IMG/VR virus record: IMGVR_UViG_3300032050_010539
Direction: 5' to 3' (one strand)
DNA: 64,000 nt
DNA from: a virus
In this document: positions 410 through 38,997 of the stretch, piece by piece
Layout: each line of letters opens with the position of its first letter
How positions within the stretch are numbered: the stretch's first letter is position 1
Position numbers and translations under genes: made by a program
Notes under the pieces: model-generated
Database searches by the model: none
Seen by the model: only the letters and a program-made list of their open reading frames with translations
What the model was told of the DNA's origin: nothing

Positions 410-1558
410 ATGAGATTACTGATATACATAGGTCAGTCTGTAACTATGAGATATCTAGTAGGTAAGATAGAGTCTGAGGTGACGGGTACTCTATCTATCA
501 CTGATAAGATAGTGACAGTGGGGCCCGCCCGTTCTAATCTACGAGATGTACTGACTATAATACAAGACAATAATACTATCTACACTAGGCCAGATGGCAC
601 GCCGACCTATAATGCCCCAGTGGCGCAGACGCTAACACGTCCGTTTAGTTGGGCCGCTGACGCAGAGGCGGCTGTGGTAGAGTACCTAGAGCAGGGTATA
701 GCGCCAGAGGTACAGCTTATACGTCGCACTGCGCTAGTCACATACATAGATAGCCTCATAGTAGAGGCAGTCAGATTAATTGATAATGACCTCATATTAG
801 AAACAGCAGCAGGAGACGTAAGAACGCCAGTCAACGAAGTACTCCAGATTACTACTGGGGTTCCATCTCGATGGAGTGATAGTATAATAGACCTGGAGGT
901 ATGGTTAGAATCTCTGGGCTCAGGTCGTTTCTACATAGATAGAATAGGAGACGCTACAACGATAGAGGCAGATATAGTCTATACTAGTCGGGGCCGTCAG
1001 ATAGTAGGTAGACTAGGGGATATAACTGTAACGATGCCAATAGAGACAGTAGAGAGCGTAAGACAAGGCGATAAGACGTGGTTTAATACCCGGCCGCCGC
1101 GGGGGCCCATAATTCCTAACCTAGGTCTACTCCGCGCTGCTACTAGATTTATACGAAATTACACAATAAATGAGACTATAGGCGCAGAGTTATACGAGAC
1201 GTATCTAATAGATGGTACTCGTATAAACAGCCGGGCCATGTATTTACAGGATGGCTGCATAGTATTGGCAAATGGGCCAGAGAGCTGGTGGGTCAGTGTA
1301 AGAGATGTAAGGTTACTGACGGCTACTATGTTCTCTGGTCTATCAGTTAATACGCTTATACCGTTAGGCAGGTCTATCCCGCAGGCTCGCACTGTGCCTA
1401 TACAATCATCTATAGGCGTAATATATAGAGAAGGTGACTATAAGCCCATATTCTTCTTATCTATAAGAGAATGGAGTAATATATTCATTCTTGCTACATA
1501 CGAGAATGATAATTACCTAGTAGCTAAAGAGGAGATTGGCCGAATTGAGTACTATTAA
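410..1558 (+). CDS. hypothetical virion/late protein, 382 aa
   Basis: Long ORF with RBS in the co-oriented cluster upstream of terminase. Confidence 0.7.
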   Translation: MRLLIYIGQSVTMRYLVGKIESEVTGTLSITDKIVTVGPARSNLRDVLTIIQDNNTIYTRPDGTPTYNAPVAQTLTRPFSWAADAEAAVVEYLEQGIAPEVQLIRRTALVTYIDSLIVEAVRLIDNDLILETAAGDVRTPVNEVLQITTGVPSRWSDSIIDLEVWLESLGSGRFYIDRIGDATTIEADIVYTSRGRQIVGRLGDITVTMPIETVESVRQGDKTWFNTRPPRGPIIPNLGLLRAATRFIRNYTINETIGAELYETYLIDGTRINSRAMYLQDGCIVLANGPESWWVSVRDVRLLTATMFSGLSVNTLIPLGRSIPQARTVPIQSSIGVIYREGDYKPIFFLSIREWSNIFILATYENDNYLVAKEEIGRIEYY

Positions 1559-2381
1559 ACCATGGCAAGAACTAGTAGCAGAACAACGGCGGCTCAACCC
1601 CGCGCGGCCTTATCAGCCGCAGGCAGGTCTATTTGAATATAAGGGCCTAGATGCACTAGTCATAGAGGCAGAGAGTTATACATGGGTAGGAATCCAGTGG
1701 CTGGGCGGCGATTTATGGGGCCGTCGCGGCTGGCAGGAGATAGCCGTATTTGTAAGAATAGATGGCCAGAGCTGGGCCAATAGGCGATATATCTACTTAC
1801 CAGTAGATTTAGTAGAGCATCTCCTGCCATATATACCAATGGTAGATAATGGTTATACACTACGTTATCCCTCAGCGGATGATCTAGTACCTATATTCAG
1901 TGGTAGGCTGGTGTTGTTAAGTAGTCAGGGTATACACCCCCTATTACCCGGCTGGTTATGGACTGGACGAGTGATATGGCCTTACTATGAATATCAACAC
2001 GTATCAGGTAATATAGCGCCGCCTAATACTCTCCAGTGGAGTAAGTTAAGACCTACTAATCTACTAGATCCCCTTGGTCCACCAAGCGTAGAGCAGATGA
2101 CGCGTACACTACCTAATCTAGTAGGTGAGTTACCCACTAGGTTAGAGGAACCCTGGATAGGAACGTATACGGGCTGGTCTACTATTAATTATGGTGAGGA
2201 GACTACGCTATATCAATATAGAGCCCAGACTCAGGAATTATTCCTACTAGATAGCCCTCCATTATTAGATAGTATTTTATACAAACAGCAGTGGTTAATT
2301 GATAAGGTGCGCCTCAGTCATAGTATTGTACAGGGCGTAGTTATACAGCAGACAGTAACAGCAACATTGAGATTATGGTAA
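1536..2381 (+). CDS. hypothetical late protein, 281 aa
   Basis: TTG start with GAGGAG RBS; overlaps both neighbours. Confidence 0.7.
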   Translation: MAELSTIKPWQELVAEQRRLNPARPYQPQAGLFEYKGLDALVIEAESYTWVGIQWLGGDLWGRRGWQEIAVFVRIDGQSWANRRYIYLPVDLVEHLLPYIPMVDNGYTLRYPSADDLVPIFSGRLVLLSSQGIHPLLPGWLWTGRVIWPYYEYQHVSGNIAPPNTLQWSKLRPTNLLDPLGPPSVEQMTRTLPNLVGELPTRLEEPWIGTYTGWSTINYGEETTLYQYRAQTQELFLLDSPPLLDSILYKQQWLIDKVRLSHSIVQGVVIQQTVTATLRLW

Positions 2382-2743
2382 CTAAGCTAGATCTAGTTAA
2401 GGATAGAGCTATTATACGAGGGGCCCTCTGGGATCTACTGACTATACTACGTCAGGGAGACCTAACAGCACTGCAGTGCCGGGGCCAGATACGAGATGGA
2501 GAGGATGGTGAGTTATTTGCTAACTTTGAGTTTGAGCCTCTAACTACAGTAGATAGAGATGGAGTGATCTACACACGTATTAAACCCTATCTAGGTGCCA
2601 CACGTACTAAGCAGATACCTACTACAGCACCGCGTCAGACATGGTTCTATGATATAGAGTTATATGATCCCCTCGATGATGATATAGTGTATAGAATCAT
2701 CGACGGCGCTGTAGAGAGCCGTCTAAACATAACATTACCTTAA
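2375..2743 (+). CDS. putative baseplate/tail-associated protein, 122 aa
   Basis: C-terminal WFYDIELYD...VYRIIDG pattern resembles small phage baseplate/tail adaptor proteins; structural context. Confidence 0.45.
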   Translation: MVTKLDLVKDRAIIRGALWDLLTILRQGDLTALQCRGQIRDGEDGELFANFEFEPLTTVDRDGVIYTRIKPYLGATRTKQIPTTAPRQTWFYDIELYDPLDDDIVYRIIDGAVESRLNITLP

Positions 2744-2744
2744 C

Positions 2745-3215
2745 ATGTACACAAGAGCACTATACTCCTTCCTACTATCTCAGATTAATACTAATCTAGT
2801 AGTCATTCTAATCAATCGGCCCGAGCTAGGTATAGGTACTGTATTAACCCCCACTGAGATAGATGCCCGCCTGAATATCACCATGGCTGAAGCAGCCCTC
2901 TGGGAGATTAGTGGTTATAGTAGATTCATCGTCACTACCCCAATCATCACTATCCCAACACGTACAGCACCCACTGCTAGTTTGGTTGCTACTGCTACAT
3001 TCACGCCATCAGGGGGGCCGATAGGGCCCTTCACTCATGCACTGGTAGTACGGGGGGCTAACCTAACTGGTGCCAGTCCAGCTAATGGTAATAACCGCGG
3101 TAGTAACGTGGGTACTGTAGTGCACATAGAAACCGTAGTTAGCGCACCACTCTCGGTAGCACCACCTGCAGTATACAATTGCACTATCAATTTACTGCTC
3201 AACGAGCAGACATGA
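2745..3215 (+). CDS. putative tail-associated protein, 156 aa
   Basis: EISGYSR...ATFTPSGGPIGPFTHALV pattern typical of small phage tail proteins; Thr/Gly/Ala-rich. Confidence 0.5.
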   Translation: MYTRALYSFLLSQINTNLVVILINRPELGIGTVLTPTEIDARLNITMAEAALWEISGYSRFIVTTPIITIPTRTAPTASLVATATFTPSGGPIGPFTHALVVRGANLTGASPANGNNRGSNVGTVVHIETVVSAPLSVAPPAVYNCTINLLLNEQT

Positions 3216-3389
3216 CTCCTATAGCTGCGACTTAGTAGAGAGGCCAGCAGGGTATAGTTCTGTGGCCTCCTCGACTGTTAGTTTTATTCATTCGCATATA
3301 ATAAAATTCCACCACCTCAATACTAAGCATAGTGCCAATTACTACACGAGCCGTGCTATAAACTTCCAAATCTAGAGTCAAGTACATGC

Positions 3390-4181
3390 GTGGTGCCTGC
3401 TATTAACCACATAGTGAGGGGCATACTACTAAAGCGTCGCTGTCTAAACTCATTATTCATTGTGATTAACCTCGAGTCATTAATTAGAACACGGGCCCCT
3501 GCGCTATTAGGCGCTCTGCCACTATTAGATTGGTGGATAATACAATTACTCAGTAGTACTGATTACCCTGTCGTAGTTCTCAATAGGGATATACATTCTG
3601 TTAGAGTGCCCGGCCCCTACGACATGATAGATAGTAGGGGTAATTTTATCATGCGCTCAGAATTAGATAGCTGGGGTCTAGAACCACTGCAGAGAGCCAT
3701 CCTCTCTACTAAGGCGGAGGGCAGTATAAGCGCATACGTACTGCGGTCAGGCAGCTCTAGTACTATTATAATCTACACTGCATTCTCTCGAGACAATAGT
3801 CTAGATCAAGAGGTACAATTAGAGGTCCCGCAGAATACAACGGTAGTAACTATCCGCTTCAATTCAACTGTGCCCTGGACACTACGCTATATAGAATCGC
3901 CCCCCCGCTTAGATGTACCAATACCAGATGAGTACATAGAGCTAGAGATAGACGCGGGCACTCATATTATGAGTACCATATCGTCTATATATCTGAATCC
4001 ATCACTACCAGTAAACACAATATCGGGCCCTGCAGCAATACACATGATACCCCAAGGTGACGTATTCTATGTCGCTATAAATGAGGATCCTAATTTAGTC
4101 AAGGCTATACAACCTGACATAGACATAATAGAATACACAGAGACTAAGAATATGTGTATGGAGGTGACACTTGGCGCGTAA
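3390..4181 (+). CDS. hypothetical protein (true start may be ~3623, MIDSRG)
   Basis: ORF abutting terminase; 5' end uncertain. Confidence 0.55.
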   Translation: MVPAINHIVRGILLKRRCLNSLFIVINLESLIRTRAPALLGALPLLDWWIIQLLSSTDYPVVVLNRDIHSVRVPGPYDMIDSRGNFIMRSELDSWGLEPLQRAILSTKAEGSISAYVLRSGSSSTIIIYTAFSRDNSLDQEVQLEVPQNTTVVTIRFNSTVPWTLRYIESPPRLDVPIPDEYIELEIDAGTHIMSTISSIYLNPSLPVNTISGPAAIHMIPQGDVFYVAINEDPNLVKAIQPDIDIIEYTETKNMCMEVTLGA

Positions 4182-35472: not shown

Positions 35473-35554
35473 TGGGTTAGGCTGGGTTTGCACCAGCGTG
35501 GAATTACTCTACAGATTTACAGTCTGTCGCCTTCGACTACTCGGCCACTAACCC
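35473..35554 (-). tRNA. trnY: tRNA-Tyr(GTA)
   Basis: GGGTTAG/CTAACCC acceptor, anticodon arm ACAGA-CTGTAAA-TCTGT, long variable arm, T-arm GCTGG-TGCAAAC-CCAGC (atypical T-loop). Confidence 0.88.
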
Positions 35555-35566
35555 TTGTTTAGATTT

Positions 35567-35595
35567 ATCTTACCATAATTCTTAATGCCTGTCAA
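35567..35595 (-). promoter_or_regulatory. sigma70-type promoter for tRNA-Tyr
   Basis: TTGACA-N17-TAAGAT. Confidence 0.75.
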
Positions 35596-36057
35596 TCATG
35601 GTTTTTGATTTTCTTGATTCTTTTGAGATTCTTGCAAATTGAGAAGTTGAAGCACAGCTTCATCTGCGTCTTTACGCGCCATACTACAAGTCCATAGTCT
35701 TTGTTCATTGCGCTTAATAATGATAATTTCTGTATCAGAAACTGAACAAACTAAATCATTTTTCTGTTTTATTAGTTGATTAAGAGATTCTATTCGTTGC
35801 TTTTGTTCTAATTCAGAAACGGGTTGAGGTTTTTCTCCGTACTCTTGTGTAGAGAAAACAATAGCTAACATAAAACTTTTTGTTTCTTTAAACTGAAACC
35901 GAATAATCTGCCAACTAAATTCACCATCAGGTTCTAATTCTCGATTCCAAATATTTAGAAAGGTCTGTAAATAACCTTCTAATCCTTTTTGAGTTTGACG
36001 GTTTTTATTAATATCACTGACTAAAAATCCCGTATCTAACAGAATATTTGACTTCAT
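35596..36057 (-). CDS. host-like protein resembling the C-terminal domain of type IIG/N-6 DNA methylase R-M enzymes
   Basis: IIIIKRNEQRLWTCSMARKDADE motif; AT-rich, host-like codon use. Confidence 0.45.
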   Translation of the reverse strand: MKSNILLDTGFLVSDINKNRQTQKGLEGYLQTFLNIWNRELEPDGEFSWQIIRFQFKETKSFMLAIVFSTQEYGEKPQPVSELEQKQRIESLNQLIKQKNDLVCSVSDTEIIIIKRNEQRLWTCSMARKDADEAVLQLLNLQESQKNQENQKP

Positions 36058-36299
36058 TTGCTGCCAATACCTCGAAGATAGTCTTTATTAGTGGCTAAGT
36101 CCCCCGGTCCGCCATCGACACAACCAATATATTCTTTGGCTGCTTCATAGAATGAAATCGTTTTTTCTTCAGTGAGTTCTTTCTTCTCTGCCTTAAATTG
36201 CAAGAATTTAATAAAGTCGATTACTTCTTGCTGTTGTTGGGGAGTGAGGGCGTTTAGTTTTTCTAAGATGGTTTGTGAGTGAGTGGTTGCTGATATCAT
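36054..36299 (-). CDS. DUF2281-like antitoxin
   Basis: LEKLNALTPQQQQEVIDFIKFL and IGCVDGGPGDLATNKDYL.G.G motifs of cyanobacterial antitoxins. Confidence 0.7.
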   Translation of the reverse strand: MISATTHSQTILEKLNALTPQQQQEVIDFIKFLQFKAEKKELTEEKTISFYEAAKEYIGCVDGGPGDLATNKDYLRGIGSK

Positions 36300-36430
36300 G
36301 GGTTAATTCTCTTGGGGGTTCTTCTGACTGACTGTCTTGAATAGAGTAAGAGTAAGAATATCAAGGATTTAACAGTTCTACATAAAACATATTGTGACTC
36401 CGATTAATTTTACATATAAAGTTTTAATGT

Positions 36431-36736
36431 TTATTCATTGCCAAGATACCATTGCTTATCACTAAGAAACCAGAAAAACATTCCTTTGCAAGAATTAGTA
36501 CAGTCTTTCTCAGATATTAATTCTTGCCATAAACGAAAACATTCAAAAAATTGCTCCCATCCATAAGGAACATCTTCTTTAAGATTAGTCCAAATAATAG
36601 ATAGATACCTTTCGATAAGATTGCGTATTGTTAAGATTAAAGAGTGTGGTTTTATTCCCATCTCTTTTAGTTCTGCTTTGGTTAATTTCTTTCTTAGAAA
36701 TTGATCGATCTTTTTATCTAGTTGCGTTTGATTCAT
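36431..36736 (-). CDS. hypothetical protein, 101 aa (12 nt downstream of a CRISPR-like repeat)
   Basis: ORF track; AT-rich island. Confidence 0.6.
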   Translation of the reverse strand: MNQTQLDKKIDQFLRKKLTKAELKEMGIKPHSLILTIRNLIERYLSIIWTNLKEDVPYGWEQFFECFRLWQELISEKDCTNSCKGMFFWFLSDKQWYLGNE

Positions 36737-36748
36737 TGTTTAGTATCA

Positions 36749-36785
36749 GTTTCAATCCCTAATAAAGCTTAAACTTAATTGTTTC
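36749..36785 (-). CRISPR. solitary degenerate CRISPR repeat (type I-D-like)
   Basis: GAAACAATTAAGTTTAAGCTTTATTAGGGATTGAAAC, 37 nt ending in ATTGAAAC. Confidence 0.65.
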
Positions 36786-36799
36786 TTTTTCCTTAATAT

Positions 36800-37066
36800 T
36801 TAATCTTCTCCCCAATCTGGGTAGTATTGTAAATAGACAGCTTGTCGCTCGATAGCTTCCTTCTCAAGCTTTTCAATTTCTTCGTCATCGAAGTCGTGGT
36901 CCCAAATTAGAGAATCAAGAAACTGGTCTTCTTTCTCTATAAACAATTCCTTCTTAACCATAAAATCTTGGCAACCATAAGACATCCCTCCGCTTTTCCC
37001 TATAAAAATAAGCGCATTGTCTTCAACGGTCGCCAAAAACTCTTTTAATTGTTTTGCAGTAATCAC
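36800..37066 (-). CDS. small acidic protein, 88 aa, between CRISPR-like repeats (Acr candidate)
   Basis: AGGAG RBS with GTG start; D/E-rich. Confidence 0.6.
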   Translation of the reverse strand: MITAKQLKEFLATVEDNALIFIGKSGGMSYGCQDFMVKKELFIEKEDQFLDSLIWDHDFDDEEIEKLEKEAIERQAVYLQYYPDWGED

Positions 37067-37133
37067 TTTGTGTCTCCTAAATAAAAAGTTATCTTATCAA
37101 TATTCGGATTGGGAATCTACCATAATTCAATCA

Positions 37134-37251
37134 GTTTCAATCTCTAGTAGGGTTTAAAACTAATACACAATAACACCTACTATTAACCAATTACGTTGAG
37201 TATGATAATGGTGAATCTCAAACCCTACTAGGGATTGAGATTAATTCTAAC
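37134..37251 (-). CRISPR. mini-array: degenerate repeat (37215-37251) / 44-nt spacer / degenerate repeat (37134-37170)
   Basis: GTTAGAATTAATCTCAATCCCTAGTAGGGTTTGAGAT and TTGTGTATTAGTTTTAAACCCTACTAGAGATTGAAAC; CCCTA/TAG(G/A)G hairpin core. Confidence 0.62.
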
Positions 37252-37272
37252 ACAATTTCTAATGTCTGTTAA
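37244..37272 (-). promoter_or_regulatory. sigma70-type promoter reading into the repeat cluster
   Basis: TTAACA-N17-TAGAAT. Confidence 0.6.
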
Positions 37273-37277
37273 TAACT

Positions 37278-37541
37278 ATGGCTAAGAAGAAGAGCTTCAC
37301 TTTTAAGAAAGAGCACAAGGATCCGGACGGAGGGCTAACAGCTAAGGGCCGCGCTGATTACAATCGCGCTACTGGCTCTAACCTGAAGCCCCCTGCCCCT
37401 AATCCCAAGAACAAGACGGATGCGGCCCGCCGTAAGAGCTTCTGTGCGCGTAGCGCAGGCCAGGCGGATATGCACGATATAGACTGTCGCAAGACACCTA
37501 ACAAGCGCTTATGCAAGGCCCGCAAGGCATGGGCATGCTAG
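37278..37541 (+). CDS. DUF6321-like basic phage protein
   Basis: GGLTAKGRA.YNRATGSNLK.P...RRKSFCARS motif. Confidence 0.75.
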   Translation: MAKKKSFTFKKEHKDPDGGLTAKGRADYNRATGSNLKPPAPNPKNKTDAARRKSFCARSAGQADMHDIDCRKTPNKRLCKARKAWAC

Positions 37542-37554
37542 GACAGCGCTAGTG

Positions 37555-38997
37555 TCAAGTAGTGAATACAGTGACGTGATCACCACCGTATGTATCAGTG
37601 GCTATCCTAATGCGCGCCTCACTCTGAGAGTGGAACCAGCCCTGTGGATCCACGAAGTCAATTATAGGTGGGTTACGCTTACCCTCTTTAACGCGTAAGG
37701 CCCGGCCCACCTTTTGAATCATAGATACACCGTCTACTCCTCCCTTACCGCCGGCGGCCATTATAATACTACCAATAGAGCGTATGCTTACACCTAGGCT
37801 CAAGATACCCTCACTGGCTATAGCGCCAGATATAGAGCCCGCTGACAGCTGGTCCAGTACATTGGTTATGTTAGTACTCTTACCATGAATAATGGGTAGA
37901 GATGTGCCCAGCGCCTCTAGCTCAGTCAGTACGTTAAGGGCCTGACTGGCAGGATTCTTCTTCTTACTACTAGTACCTACCTTACGTACTAGGATGAGCA
38001 CAGGCCCATAGCCGTCTTTTATCAGTCGGCATGCGTGCCTTGCTATAAGGGCATTGCGGGCTCTATTATTAACTATGACGCTATCGTATAGCTGATTATA
38101 GAGATATGGTGTGAAGGGCTTATTGAATGAGCTGTGCGTTACTGCACCGGGAGGAGCTGGATAGAACTCGAACTTAGGTTGCATAATGACACCGCTCTCG
38201 ATGAGAGTAGTCTCTTGATACTCTGCGAGAAGAGGGCCGAATATAGCCTCCATCATCTTAGGGCGAGTAGGTGTAGCAGTCATGCCAATCTTATAACACG
38301 CGTTGACTAATGACAGAGCAGTAGTGATACCACTTACATTCATATAGGTATGCGCCTCATCGAACACAGCGACCTCAATACCAGAGAGCCACTCTATATA
38401 GCGTCTATCGCCCCGTTTAATACGCTCATAGAGAGTATCTACGGTAGCGATAGTCATAGCTCCAATATCATCATTACCATCTCCTACTAGCCCAGGAGAG
38501 AGGCCCGCCCACTCCTGCACATCCTCTGCCATCTGGTAGAGTAGACGTACGGTAGGTACTACTATGAGTCGGCGGGCCTCGAAGTACTTCATCAGCGTAG
38601 CAATAACAGCGCTCTTCCCATAACCAGTAGCAGCCCGCACGTAGCCCCGGTAGCCCCGTAATATGCTAGTTATTGCCTCTCGTTGGTCGAGACGTAGTCT
38701 AGCGTCTATAACGGGATCGAGTAGAGTTGGTCGGGGGGGCAATTCTAGAGTAGCGGTATGGCCAGCCCGTCGTAGTAACTCCATATAAAGAGGGAGGAGG
38801 CCCGCCAATAAGCGATAGCCTCCTTGCCCATCTGGATAATAGAGAGGGTAATGAGCGGGTATAGCTAGGAGTTCAATAGGAAGAATACCCGCTATAGAGC
38901 GGGCTTCCTCTACGTCTAGCACTGCACAGAGATGTCTATGACAGTCTGGCAGTAGTTCTGGTATATAGGCCCAGTTACCATCTACTCGTATTATCAT
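37555..38997 (-). CDS. uvsW: UvsW-like SF2 helicase
   Basis: LRLDQ, ATGYGKS, VPT..L..Q, DEAH, GMTATP, QKVGRALR. Confidence 0.85.
   Translation of the reverse strand: MIIRVDGNWAYIPELLPDCHRHLCAVLDVEEARSIAGILPIELLAIPAHYPLYYPDGQGGYRLLAGLLPLYMELLRRAGHTATLELPPRPTLLDPVIDARLRLDQREAITSILRGYRGYVRAATGYGKSAVIATLMKYFEARRLIVVPTVRLLYQMAEDVQEWAGLSPGLVGDGNDDIGAMTIATVDTLYERIKRGDRRYIEWLSGIEVAVFDEAHTYMNVSGITTALSLVNACYKIGMTATPTRPKMMEAIFGPLLAEYQETTLIESGVIMQPKFEFYPAPPGAVTHSSFNKPFTPYLYNQLYDSVIVNNRARNALIARHACRLIKDGYGPVLILVRKVGTSSKKKNPASQALNVLTELEALGTSLPIIHGKSTNITNVLDQLSAGSISGAIASEGILSLGVSIRSIGSIIMAAGGKGGVDGVSMIQKVGRALRVKEGKRNPPIIDFVDPQGWFHSQSEARIRIATDTYGGDHVTVFTT

Follow-up and report, generated by a model that had tools for sequence, protein, structure and literature searches.

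Organisation of the locus

The locus described here lies in a 64,000-nucleotide stretch of viral DNA (IMG/VR record IMGVR_UViG_3300032050_010539), hereafter the window. Three co-oriented 37-nt repeat-like units (U1, U2 and U3), all intergenic and all read on the minus strand, are arranged in the order repeat, 44 nt, repeat, 88-aa acidic ORF, repeat, 101-aa ORF; an earlier sequence-only reading had described both the units and this layout correctly. The features are listed below from the divergent neighbouring gene leftwards, with unit identities given relative to the Microcystis type I-D repeat that the same reading had named.

37278..37541, plus strand: DUF6321 gene, divergent; in sibling phages the native S1 copy directly precedes it
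37244..37272, minus strand: sigma70-type promoter, TTAACA-N17-TAGAAT with an upstream TG (10/12 matches)
37215..37251, minus strand: U1, first repeat-like unit (29/37)
37171..37214, minus strand: S1, 44-nt spacer between U1 and U2, copied from intergenic DNA native to sibling phages
37134..37170, minus strand: U2, second repeat-like unit (28/37)
37067..37133, minus strand: 5′ UTR of the 88-aa ORF; its ribosome-binding site, AGGAG, precedes the GTG start by 8 nt
36800..37066, minus strand: 88-aa acidic ORF (pI 4.24), no family match
36749..36785, minus strand: U3, solitary repeat (29/37)
36431..36736, minus strand: 101-aa ORF, from a protein family with over 100 members, no match to a known family
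36054..36299, minus strand: 81-aa ORF, next gene of the same putative transcription unit, weak DUF2281 match below the Pfam cut-off
35596..36057, minus strand: 153-aa homologue of Ma-LMM01 gp163 (phrog_36071, profile positions 65–203 of 208)
35473..35554, minus strand: tRNA-Tyr, downstream in the same direction; directly after the promoter in L188-type relatives

As the sequence-only reading had noted for the window, no cas operon accompanies the units: the 78-kb phage fragment (~46% of the genome) yielded no Cas6, Cas10d, Csc2 or TnpB/Cas12 domain, and in it the repeat-like units lie outside any CRISPR-cas locus. An Rfam search returned no family at the units, the only nearby hit being the tRNA-Tyr.

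The units resemble the type I-D repeat of Microcystis

The named repeat proved to be authentic. It is present letter for letter in a Microcystis novacekii genome (L069:836-872:-) and occurs in 13/17 Microcystis genomes, in arrays of up to 174 copies; in one of the genomes (G002) the array is located directly behind a full type I-D operon, Cas10d-Csc2-Csc1-Cas3′-Cas6-Cas4-Cas1d-Cas2. A single base separates the named repeat from the I-D repeat published for FACHB-524 (PMC11855584, Table 1), the strain that hosts the closest cultured phages. U1, U2 and U3 are all similar to this repeat of arrays adjoining a type I-D cas operon, and the counts of 29, 28 and 29 of 37 that had been made by hand were reproduced exactly. 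The top repeat score in the shuffled window (n=200) was 25/37, compared to 28–29/37 for the three units, and beyond them the best site of the window reached 22/37. U2 matches the FACHB-524 form of the repeat at 29/37 positions (8/8 in the handle, 11/18 in the 5′ part), while U3 scores 28–29/37 against the host repeat versus 34/37 against the repeat of phage-borne arrays (see below). Among themselves, the units are only 24/37 alike.

The host-type repeat combines a hairpin (CCCT-N3-AGGG) with a single-stranded 8-nt handle, ATTGAAAC, and the three units deviate from this design in different ways. In U1 the stem is retained and lengthened, and the handle is both changed (5/8) and paired, being buried in an extended 7+4-bp stem; the core of the unit is a near-perfect palindrome, with a predicted fold of -12.8 kcal/mol (z -3.8). 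U1 begins with 13 nt of native phage sequence and passes into repeat sequence at the microhomology AATTAATC. The sibling form of U1 (L144) is closer to the repeat, at 32/37, and the 17-nt core is inverted in the window form. The possibility that U1 lies in the opposite orientation was rejected, as the sibling form matches in the same direction as U2 and U3. The U1-derived 5′ handle that S1 would inherit differs from ATTGAAAC at two positions in siblings and at three in the window.

U2 and U3, conversely, are the two units that end in ATTGAAAC, intact and terminal, and it is their stems that are weakened. One G-to-A change in U2 creates a stem mismatch and the 5′ half of this unit is degenerate (predicted fold -2.1 kcal/mol), while the U3 stem is preserved solely via G-U pairs; the predicted folds of both are no better than those of shuffled sequences. 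U1 and U2 of the window are also predicted to pair together in a 24-bp stem, which could mask both hairpins. When the solitary units are compared, most retain all positions of the 8-nt handle (8/8), in contrast to a drifting 5′ half; the handle and the 3′ stem arm are the best-preserved parts. At the level of sequence, this conservation of the handle fits the part that Cas6 and Cas5 would bind.

A resident phage promoter lies at the head of the locus

The sigma70-type promoter is the only minus-strand promoter-like site between 35900 and 37700. Its -10 box is inside U1 (unit positions 3–8), so that transcription is predicted to start within U1, just 5′ of the hairpin. The units had initially been credited with a promoter of their own; the promoter itself holds up, but its occurrence in relatives marks it as the phage group's resident leftward promoter: the same promoter is found without repeats in Ma-LMM01, L149 and L188. 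It is followed by gp163 in Ma-LMM01 and by tRNA-Tyr in other relatives without repeats (L188 type). The gp163 promoter of Ma-LMM01 has been predicted and assigned to the middle class, with expression from 3 h (PMC5780444 supplement). In the window the 153-aa gp163 homologue, which lacks the first ~64 residues of gp163, is the original first gene behind this promoter. The stretch from U1 to the 101-aa ORF yielded no further promoter on the minus strand, and from its sequence the locus looks like a single transcription unit. U1 and U2 lie within 250 bp of the promoter, the distance used for selection in PMC10651486; U3 is ~460 nt downstream and has no promoter of its own.

The two small ORFs are conserved genes

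The 88-aa and 101-aa ORFs had been proposed as anti-CRISPR (Acr) candidates. They are real, conserved small genes, one of them strongly acidic, but no search links either to an anti-CRISPR: neither matched a profile in Pfam, PHROGs, NCBIfam or PDB, a protein atlas gave no lead, and no homology to a known Acr family emerged from these profile and atlas searches. An anti-CRISPR role is a candidate function at most. With these queries no homologues were detected in 17 Microcystis genomes. The AlphaFold models have low pLDDT values (56.8 for the 88-aa and 58.7 for the 101-aa protein), too low for a fold search. By eye, and without further backing, the 101-aa protein may contain a helix-turn-helix.

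Both genes also occur in other phages of Microcystis. The ORF-proximal part of the 88-aa 5′ UTR accompanies the ORF in L149, which lacks U1 and U2, and in L158, which belongs to another phage type where the ORF is found just upstream of a C2c8 nuclease gene; the 30 nt that directly follow U2 are the counterpart of the beginning of spacer S2 in a relative, L147. Members of the 101-aa family in other Microcystis phages are encoded directly behind, or within, CRISPR arrays and on the same strand. At several loci a repeat ends close to a start codon: 12 nt before it for U3 of the window, 0 nt in L142 and 5 nt in L147. Phages of the L144 type carry both small genes with no repeat between them.

S1 is a copy of sibling-phage DNA

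The native counterpart of S1 is located upstream of the DUF6321 gene in three sibling lineages without repeats (L187, L188-type and L193). The L188/L193 target is identical to the window S1 at 43/44 positions, and to the S1 copy of L190 at 44/44; the L187 target is identical to the window S1 at 42/44, with a mismatch at position 4. The window S1 is mismatched at position 8 to every target found. Carrier genomes contain a single S1 copy, which lies inside the mini-array, and the native-place copy is absent; S1 thus matches related viruses but not its carrier. The Microcystis I-D PAM is GTH (PMC7648086). The 5′ flank of the L187 target, GTT, fits this PAM, while the L188-type and L193 targets, two of the three target lineages, are flanked by ATT and have no PAM. 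Each target type therefore shows either a PAM change or a seed change, a pattern that is anecdotal because only three target variants were seen.

S1, like S2 of L147, is 44 nt long, outside the range typical of the system: spacers of living arrays are mostly 33–37 nt, and the characterised Microcystis I-D system uses 35-nt spacers (PMC7648086). Neither S1 nor S2 has a match in 17 Microcystis genomes, and the cultured-phage collection contains no S1 target beyond the carriers themselves. A seed search of the I-D locus of G002 and of three C2c8 loci with S1, S2 and the sequences following U2 and U3 found no match. The initial proposal of decoy crRNAs or a mini-array was sound as far as it rested on type I-D-like repeats in a cas-less phage. 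The 44-nt piece, however, is not arbitrary filler: being a copy of intergenic DNA of siblings, it points to an anti-rival guide rather than, or besides, a decoy.

Repeats and arrays in related phages

U1 and U2 are absent from Ma-LMM01, MaMV-DC and L149, and U3 is absent from L144. The U1-S1-U2 block is retained in three different downstream contexts; in L147 it is extended to U1-S1-U2-S2-U3′. Approximately 30 IMG/VR contigs of other uncultured Microcystis phages carry arrays of 1–26 such repeats with 101 unique spacers, which are common at the trailer end and different at the leader end. One of these spacers matches the C2c8 gene of a rival phage (36/36, 5′ GTC). For the spacers of the larger phage arrays (L140, L150 and L179), no protospacer was found in cultured phages or in the 78-kb fragment. 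The arrays in uncultured Microcystis phages adjoin a type V-U2 C2c8 nuclease, and the same nuclease, at 92–93% identity, is encoded between cas6 and the I-D array in some hosts. We rejected, as the main reading, an IS insertion as the source of the TnpB-like gene beside the arrays, because the promoter and ribosome site upstream are common to the two nuclease types and because both score as C2c8 above the curated cut-off; an IS origin of this gene is a less likely alternative.

Within the same phage genus, MaMV-CH02 and its relatives have a 39-nt spacer enclosed by two perfect copies of the host repeat. The spacer matches the Ma-LMM01 promoter at 39/39 positions with a 5′ GTT, whereas the carrier's version of this promoter is mismatched at four sites, spacer positions 7–10. 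The genus has at least one more promoter-driven solitary I-D repeat, in Ma-LMM01. Small ORFs between repeats are found in the window, L142, L147, L153–L156 and a host locus, the ORFs of L153–L156, and of L174, lying within arrays. A chimeric repeat in a host genome indicates that array-to-array recombination happens. U3 had been listed together with U1 and U2; it is indeed I-D-like with an intact handle, but it appears to be a leftover terminal repeat that came from phage-borne arrays along with the 101-aa gene, this pair being homologous to the last repeat and trailing gene of such living arrays.

A putative cas-less mini-array directed at rival phages

Our preferred reading, which we hold tentatively and at a probability of roughly 0.4, is that the locus is a cas-less phage mini-array, partly decayed, that relies on the I-D proteins of the host and is probably aimed at rival phages. 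From its sequence it looks more like a borrowed anti-rival weapon (or decoy) than a proven RNA anti-CRISPR. Starting from the observed homologies, layout, spacer–target relation and host system, we infer the following course of events. The locus would have been assembled from pieces of cas-less, phage-carried CRISPR arrays that depend on host type I-D proteins: U1-S1-U2 would be a mini-array inserted directly behind the resident middle-gene promoter, with sibling Ma-LMM01-like phages, and specifically the DNA upstream of their DUF6321 gene, as the source of S1, and U3 would be the surviving last repeat of a larger phage-borne array that arrived together with the 101-aa gene trailing it. The operon transcript would begin within U1, and host Cas6d would cut each unit 8 nt before its end; the U1-S1-U2 piece, loaded into host I-D Cascade, would then serve as a guide against co-infecting siblings, and cleavage at U3 would also release the ORF messages. 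Given the wear of the units (the changed handle and inverted core of U1, the weakened stem of U2 and the extra mismatch in S1) the guide is probably weak today, and the present RNA may act on rivals or on host immunity mainly by occupying Cas6d and Cas7d. The degenerate repeats, the 44-nt length of the spacer and the missing PAM in two of the three target lineages count against a guide, as does the timing of a middle-class promoter (from 3 h), which is late for defence against co-infection.

Such occupancy is the whole of the function if the units are Racr-type decoys, with Cas6d binding the hairpins and Cas7d assembling on the flanking RNA so that dead-end complexes drain the I-D system and S1 guides nothing. 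Solitary or near-solitary units in a cas-less phage, directly behind a promoter, are the defining SRU layout (PMC10651486), and several further points suit this account, which we consider doubtful but the strongest of the alternatives: the handle and 3′ stem arm are the parts best kept, Ma-LMM01 provides another promoter-driven solitary I-D repeat in the same genus, and the odd spacer length and altered handle are better suited to an aberrant complex than to a working guide. The supplement of PMC10651486 lists I-D candidates from viral contigs, but the passages of that study covered here name no I-D Racr among the tested candidates. In addition, the promoter is not specific to the units, the position of U3 is accounted for by descent from an array trailer, the predicted hairpins of U2 and U3 are weak and the exact match of S1 to sibling-phage DNA is left unexplained. 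It is unlikely, in our judgement, that the units are inert scars, left by recombination between phage genomes and the arrays of hosts or other phages and carried along with accessory genes. Their low mutual similarity (24/37) and individual patterns of wear, junctions at microhomologies, the patchwork of an island that varies between close relatives, the array-to-array recombination evidenced by the chimeric host repeat and the shuffle-like predicted folds of U2 and U3 would all be expected of scars; retention of the U1-S1-U2 block across three downstream contexts, handles that stay intact in almost every solitary unit despite drifting 5′ halves, and the repeated placement of repeats just before start codons would not.

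This placement is the basis of a different proposal, in which the repeats are processing signals that Cas6d cuts to yield the 88-aa and 101-aa messages, tying expression to I-D-active hosts. Repeats end 0–12 nt before start codons at several loci, ORFs sit inside arrays in L153–L156 and L174, and no internal promoters were found. However, U2 is 67 nt away from the 88-aa ORF, the ORF's own UTR is present without U2 in other phages, L144-type phages carry the same two genes with no intervening repeat, and we know of no natural precedent for operon processing by Cas6d-cut repeats; we rate this proposal as improbable. We place the same low confidence in its generalisation, whereby Microcystis phage arrays double as expression platforms from which host Cas6d yields both guide RNAs and near-leaderless messages, so that the interleaved genes would be made solely in cells with an active type I-D system. 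Finally, S1 might act as a Cracr-type guide: by partial pairing with a promoter of the host, for instance the cas operon promoter, it would turn Cascade into a repressor of immunity. Viral Cracr arrays consist of one or two fixed spacers enclosed by degenerate repeats (preprint 10.1101/2024.10.29.618823), and Microcystis I-D Cascade is able to repress a promoter (PMC7648086). Yet a Cracr calls for at least nine PAM-proximal matches to a host cas or toxin promoter, and the sequences of this locus have no seed match in the G002 I-D locus (the sole complete I-D locus examined) or the three C2c8 loci; the lack of S1 and S2 matches in the 17 Microcystis genomes and the match of S1 to phage rather than host DNA also speak against such a guide, making it by far the least credible account. 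What favours the anti-rival mini-array is the host-like sequence of the units, the origin of S1 together with its absence from the carrier's native site, the parallel cases in MaMV-CH02 and in other Microcystis phages, the match of U3 and its gene to phage-borne arrays, the kept handles and the layout as one apparent transcription unit.

Significance

Microcystis forms toxic blooms, and Ma-LMM01-like phages are its best-studied viruses. Infection succeeds even though the I-D arrays of the hosts are very large. If the units work, this phage group would engage the host I-D system via RNA, either against siblings or to blunt immunity. The question is open to experiment with a cultured pair, M. 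aeruginosa FACHB-524 and either MaMV-DH01 or MaMV-CH01, two phages whose copy of this cassette is 97–100% identical, and the Microcystis I-D system is already functional in E. coli (PMC7648086); the literature, as far as we covered it, contained no experimental test of a type I-D RNA anti-CRISPR or phage mini-array. The wider picture, with living phage arrays beside C2c8, the same nuclease in host I-D loci and spacers directed at rivals, would make Microcystis blooms a natural arena of phage-versus-phage CRISPR warfare.

Comparison with known systems

Virus-borne mini-CRISPR arrays that act in conflicts between related viruses have been described for archaeal viruses (reviewed in PMC11656645). 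Like them, the putative mini-array of the window belongs to a virus that has no cas genes, encloses one or two spacers in host-like repeats, has a spacer that matches close relatives while the carrier lacks the target, and presumably depends on host Cas proteins. Unlike the archaeal-virus arrays, it belongs to a bacterial host and to type I-D, its repeats are degenerate (78% identical to the host repeat), its spacer is 44 nt rather than about 35 nt long, and it opens a protein-coding operon in which another solitary repeat separates two genes.

With the Racrs and SRUs of PMC10651486 the locus shares repeat-like hairpins in a phage without cas genes, their position behind a promoter and the conservation of the Cas6-binding part. 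It differs from them in that two units bracket a spacer with a plausible target and in that the promoter is a resident gene promoter; to judge from the covered part of that study's table, U1–U3 are also too diverged for its high-identity search. A trait shared with viral Cracr arrays is that fixed pseudo-spacers, in some cases a series of two or three (as in L147), lie between degenerate repeats. Cracrs match host cas or toxin promoters and are known from types V-A, I-F, I-E, I-C and I-B (preprint 10.1101/2024.10.29.618823), whereas the window locus is of type I-D and no host match was found.

Cyanophage-borne CRISPR loci include the array of Nostoc phage N-1 (PMC4916379) and the type V-U2 locus of vB_AphaS-CL131 (PMC6293099). 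Unlike these, the window lacks a nuclease of its own, and its repeats number only three, all worn. Its relatives in uncultured Microcystis phages, like CL131, pair an array with a C2c8 (V-U2) nuclease; their repeat is close to the host I-D repeat, while the repeats of CL131 are unlike those of its host.

Repeat units and the host type I-D repeat

The sequence-only reading had placed three degenerate type I-D-like repeats in this cassette, and we confirmed all three on the minus strand, in the following arrangement:

37251-37215, minus strand: U1, 37-nt repeat-like unit behind the promoter
Between U1 and U2, minus strand: S1, 44-nt spacer
37170-37134, minus strand: U2, 37-nt repeat-like unit, followed by the 88-aa ORF
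36785-36749, minus strand: U3, 37-nt repeat-like unit, followed by the 101-aa ORF
36054-36299, minus strand: 81-aa ORF

The similarity to the Microcystis repeat named in that reading held at 29, 28 and 29 of 37 positions; no other site in the window exceeds 22/37, and the maximum across 200 shuffles was 25. This repeat is genuine: it has an exact copy in a Microcystis novacekii genome and is found in 13 of 17 Microcystis genomes, with up to 174 copies in an array, and in one of them (G002) a complete type I-D operon immediately precedes the array. In FACHB-524, host of the cassette-bearing cultured phages, the repeat differs by one base and is assigned to the I-D cluster, with 200 spacers (PMC11855584). 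Arrays of Nostoc, Fischerella and Calothrix also commonly contain the repeat core ending in ATTGAAAC.

In the host, the repeat forms a small hairpin (-5.3 kcal/mol) whose 3′ tail is left unpaired. U1 differs by three changes, which give it a longer stem of 7+4 bp (-12.8 kcal/mol, z -3.8) and leave its handle, the last 8 nt of the repeat, paired. In U2 the handle is intact and a single stem position is mismatched; U3 also retains the handle, and its stem depends on G-U pairs to hold. Sibling contigs carry U1 at 32/37; relative to them, the 17-nt palindromic core of U1 is inverted in the window, which gives U1 greater complementarity to U2, and the two can pair over long range in a 24-bp stem. 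Across twelve units that are solitary or terminal, drawn from several phages, most keep the handle at 8/8, while the 5′ 18 nt match at just 9-15.

Phage background and promoter

The source is a Ma-LMM01-like Microcystis myophage of the genus Fukuivirus, the window being the minus strand of a 78-kb IMG/VR fragment (~46% complete). Region 35500-38500 is 94-97% identical to Ma-LMM01, MaMV-DC, MaMV-CH01, MaMV-DL01/02 and MaMV-DH01. Among these relatives the cassette is present only in MaMV-CH01, MaMV-DL01/02 and MaMV-DH01; comparison of the same region in Ma-LMM01 and MaMV-DC found none. The 78-kb fragment, about 46% of the genome, yielded no Cas6, Cas10d, Csc2 or TnpB/Cas12 domain, in agreement with the earlier view of I-D-like repeats without a cas operon in the window.

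That part of the earlier interpretation stands; the promoter, by contrast, does not belong to the array. TTAACA-N17-TAGAAT with an upstream TG is the sole minus-strand promoter-like site in the area, and it is shared by relatives that have no repeat. It lies ahead of gp163 in Ma-LMM01, predicted there as a middle promoter with expression from 3 h (PMC5780444 supplement), and in L188-type contigs a tRNA-Tyr follows it directly. The first 13 nt of U1 are native phage sequence, the repeat portion starting at a shared AATTAATC; since these 13 nt include the -10 box, transcription should start within U1, immediately 5′ of the hairpin.

Spacer S1 and a second repeat locus

S1 has no match in the cultured phages except the carriers. 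Scanning IMG/VR with its core returned eleven contigs, and in three lineages (L187; L188/L189/L191/L194; L193) the 44 nt stand repeat-free, between the start of a DUF6321 gene and the leftward promoter. In those lineages S1 is native phage sequence; in carrier genomes it is confined to the mini-array. The S1 of one mini-array contig (L190) matches L188 at 44/44, and the window copy has one additional change, at position 8. Immediately 5′ of the native S1, L187 reads GTT and the other two lineages read ATT; the L187 sequence is also altered at position 4. The Microcystis I-D PAM is GTH (PMC7648086).

A second locus in the genus displays this carrier-versus-relative spacer pattern more cleanly. 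In Ma-LMM01 a strong promoter leads into a solitary host repeat at 36/37 (L196:330-445, 35.7 kb). In the same place MaMV-CH02 carries two perfect host repeats flanking a 39-nt spacer (L143:2440-2640), a form read directly in this phage and assigned by spacer match in MaMV-CH01 and MaMV-DL01/02. The spacer is identical to the Ma-LMM01 promoter over 39/39 positions, next to a 5′ GTT, while CH02's own promoter copy has four seed mismatches, at spacer positions 7-10. The Ma-LMM01 repeat is adjoined by two annotated 56-bp repeat units with 70-nt spacing.

Phage-borne arrays and C2c8 nucleases

The 101-aa ORF has more than 100 relatives. Some, of 95 aa, are found in another, uncultured Microcystis phage type with tape-measure, NlpC/P60 and tail genes, where the gene comes after a same-strand CRISPR array whose repeat matches U3 at 34/37. 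From this likeness and layout, U3 and the 101-aa gene probably come from such arrays. Their repeat occurs in thirty IMG/VR contigs, at 1 to 26 copies per array. Among their 101 unique spacers, those near the trailer are held in common and those near the leader differ, a mark of ongoing acquisition.

Upstream of most of these arrays lies a 627-aa TnpB-like gene; a conserved 98-nt gap separates it from 3-26 repeats close to the host type I-D repeat, with spacer turnover at the leader end. An alternative 567-aa nuclease, 29% identical to it, is paired with a separate array built on a second, 36-nt repeat type; this array begins within the 3′ end of the gene and is followed by a small I-D-like array. 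Both proteins score as type V-U2 C2c8, above the NCBIfam cut-off, and share one promoter and ribosome site; a V-U2 locus has already been described in a cyanophage (PMC6293099). One I-D-like spacer matches the 567-aa gene of a rival phage variant at 36/36 (5′ flank GTC in two contigs, GCT in two), and a spacer of the second-type array in L176 overlaps one of the I-D-like array in L140.

C2c8 loci and related genes in phage contigs and host genomes
627-aa C2c8 with array: L138, L140 (e.g. 1312-3904), L141, L150, L153-L160, L162, L165, L166, L168, L169, L172, L175, L178, L179
567-aa C2c8: L139:1877-3828; L142:875-2725; L176
Host C2c8: L182 (genome G009), L183 (G014), L184 (G013)
Gene with the C-terminal domain of the 101-aa ORF: L138:5699-5812; L144:5208-5396; L147:4959-5162

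The C2c8 of three host genomes is 92-93% identical to the phage 627-aa form and lies between a I-D cas6 (94% identical to that of G002) and an array, the place occupied in G002 by cas4-cas1-cas2. The first one or two repeats of this array are of phage type and the remainder canonical, with one chimeric repeat, which suggests that phage and host arrays have exchanged sequence. In G009, two small ORFs separate the first repeat from the rest. An uncultured siphophage-like contig shares 336 nt (L139:7953-8288), at 96% identity, with a gene annotated as hypothetical in Ma-LMM01-like phages, which shows a recent exchange of DNA between the two phage types.

ORFs and island structure

The reading frames of the 88-aa and 101-aa ORFs stay unbroken in homologues as distant as 71% and 56% identity, and both ORFs are real genes. 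The 88-aa protein is strongly acidic; neither matched a known family or solved structure, and predicted models were poor. Both are anti-CRISPR candidates by context. Because the 88-aa ORF lies immediately upstream of the nuclease in several array-bearing phages, the window order 88-aa ORF/U3/101-aa ORF corresponds to 88-aa ORF/nuclease and array/95-aa ORF, with a single repeat left of the central part.

Among relatives the island varies as a patchwork. L144-type contigs have U1-S1-U2 and both ORFs with no U3; L147 has U1-S1-U2-S2-U3′ and then other ORFs, with a further solitary repeat 5 nt ahead of a 62-aa ORF; and L149 and Ma-LMM01 lack U1 and U2. Repeats directly before ORFs recur: besides L147, L142 has one repeat abutting the start codon of an HNH-like ORF and a further one ahead of the 95-aa ORF, and in L153-L156 and L174 the array encloses the 95-aa ORF.

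About 1.3 kb further down the island, a second gene carries the same C-terminal domain as the 101-aa ORF (residues 41-101), and in other family members a hydrophobic segment replaces the N-terminal half. The 81-aa ORF has a weak DUF2281 match and overlaps by 4 nt the start of a truncated gp163 homologue, which has lost the first ~64 residues relative to Ma-LMM01. The Ma-LMM01 gp163 start resembles the C-terminal end of the 101-aa ORF, and this likeness looks like a recombination scar.

Possible functions

We infer all steps past the DNA level. Our leading reading, at a probability of about 0.4, is a host-dependent mini-array whose spacer is directed against sibling phages, together with a remnant terminal repeat; both would have partly decayed. 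The 44-nt length of S1 and the absence of a PAM in two lineages weigh against a working guide. That the repeats act purely as decoys is a serious rival, at about one chance in four, and so is an inert relic, slightly less probable again. We consider an operon punctuated by Cas6 cleavage improbable, and it is compatible with the other readings. A host-directed regulatory guide is very improbable: no support was found, S1 is unmatched in 17 host genomes, and its counterpart is sibling-phage DNA.

A mini-array aimed at siblings, the reading we prefer, has precedent. The locus is one of the cas-less repeats and mini-arrays already known from viruses, and the distribution of S1 is that reported for virus-borne mini-arrays aimed at relatives.
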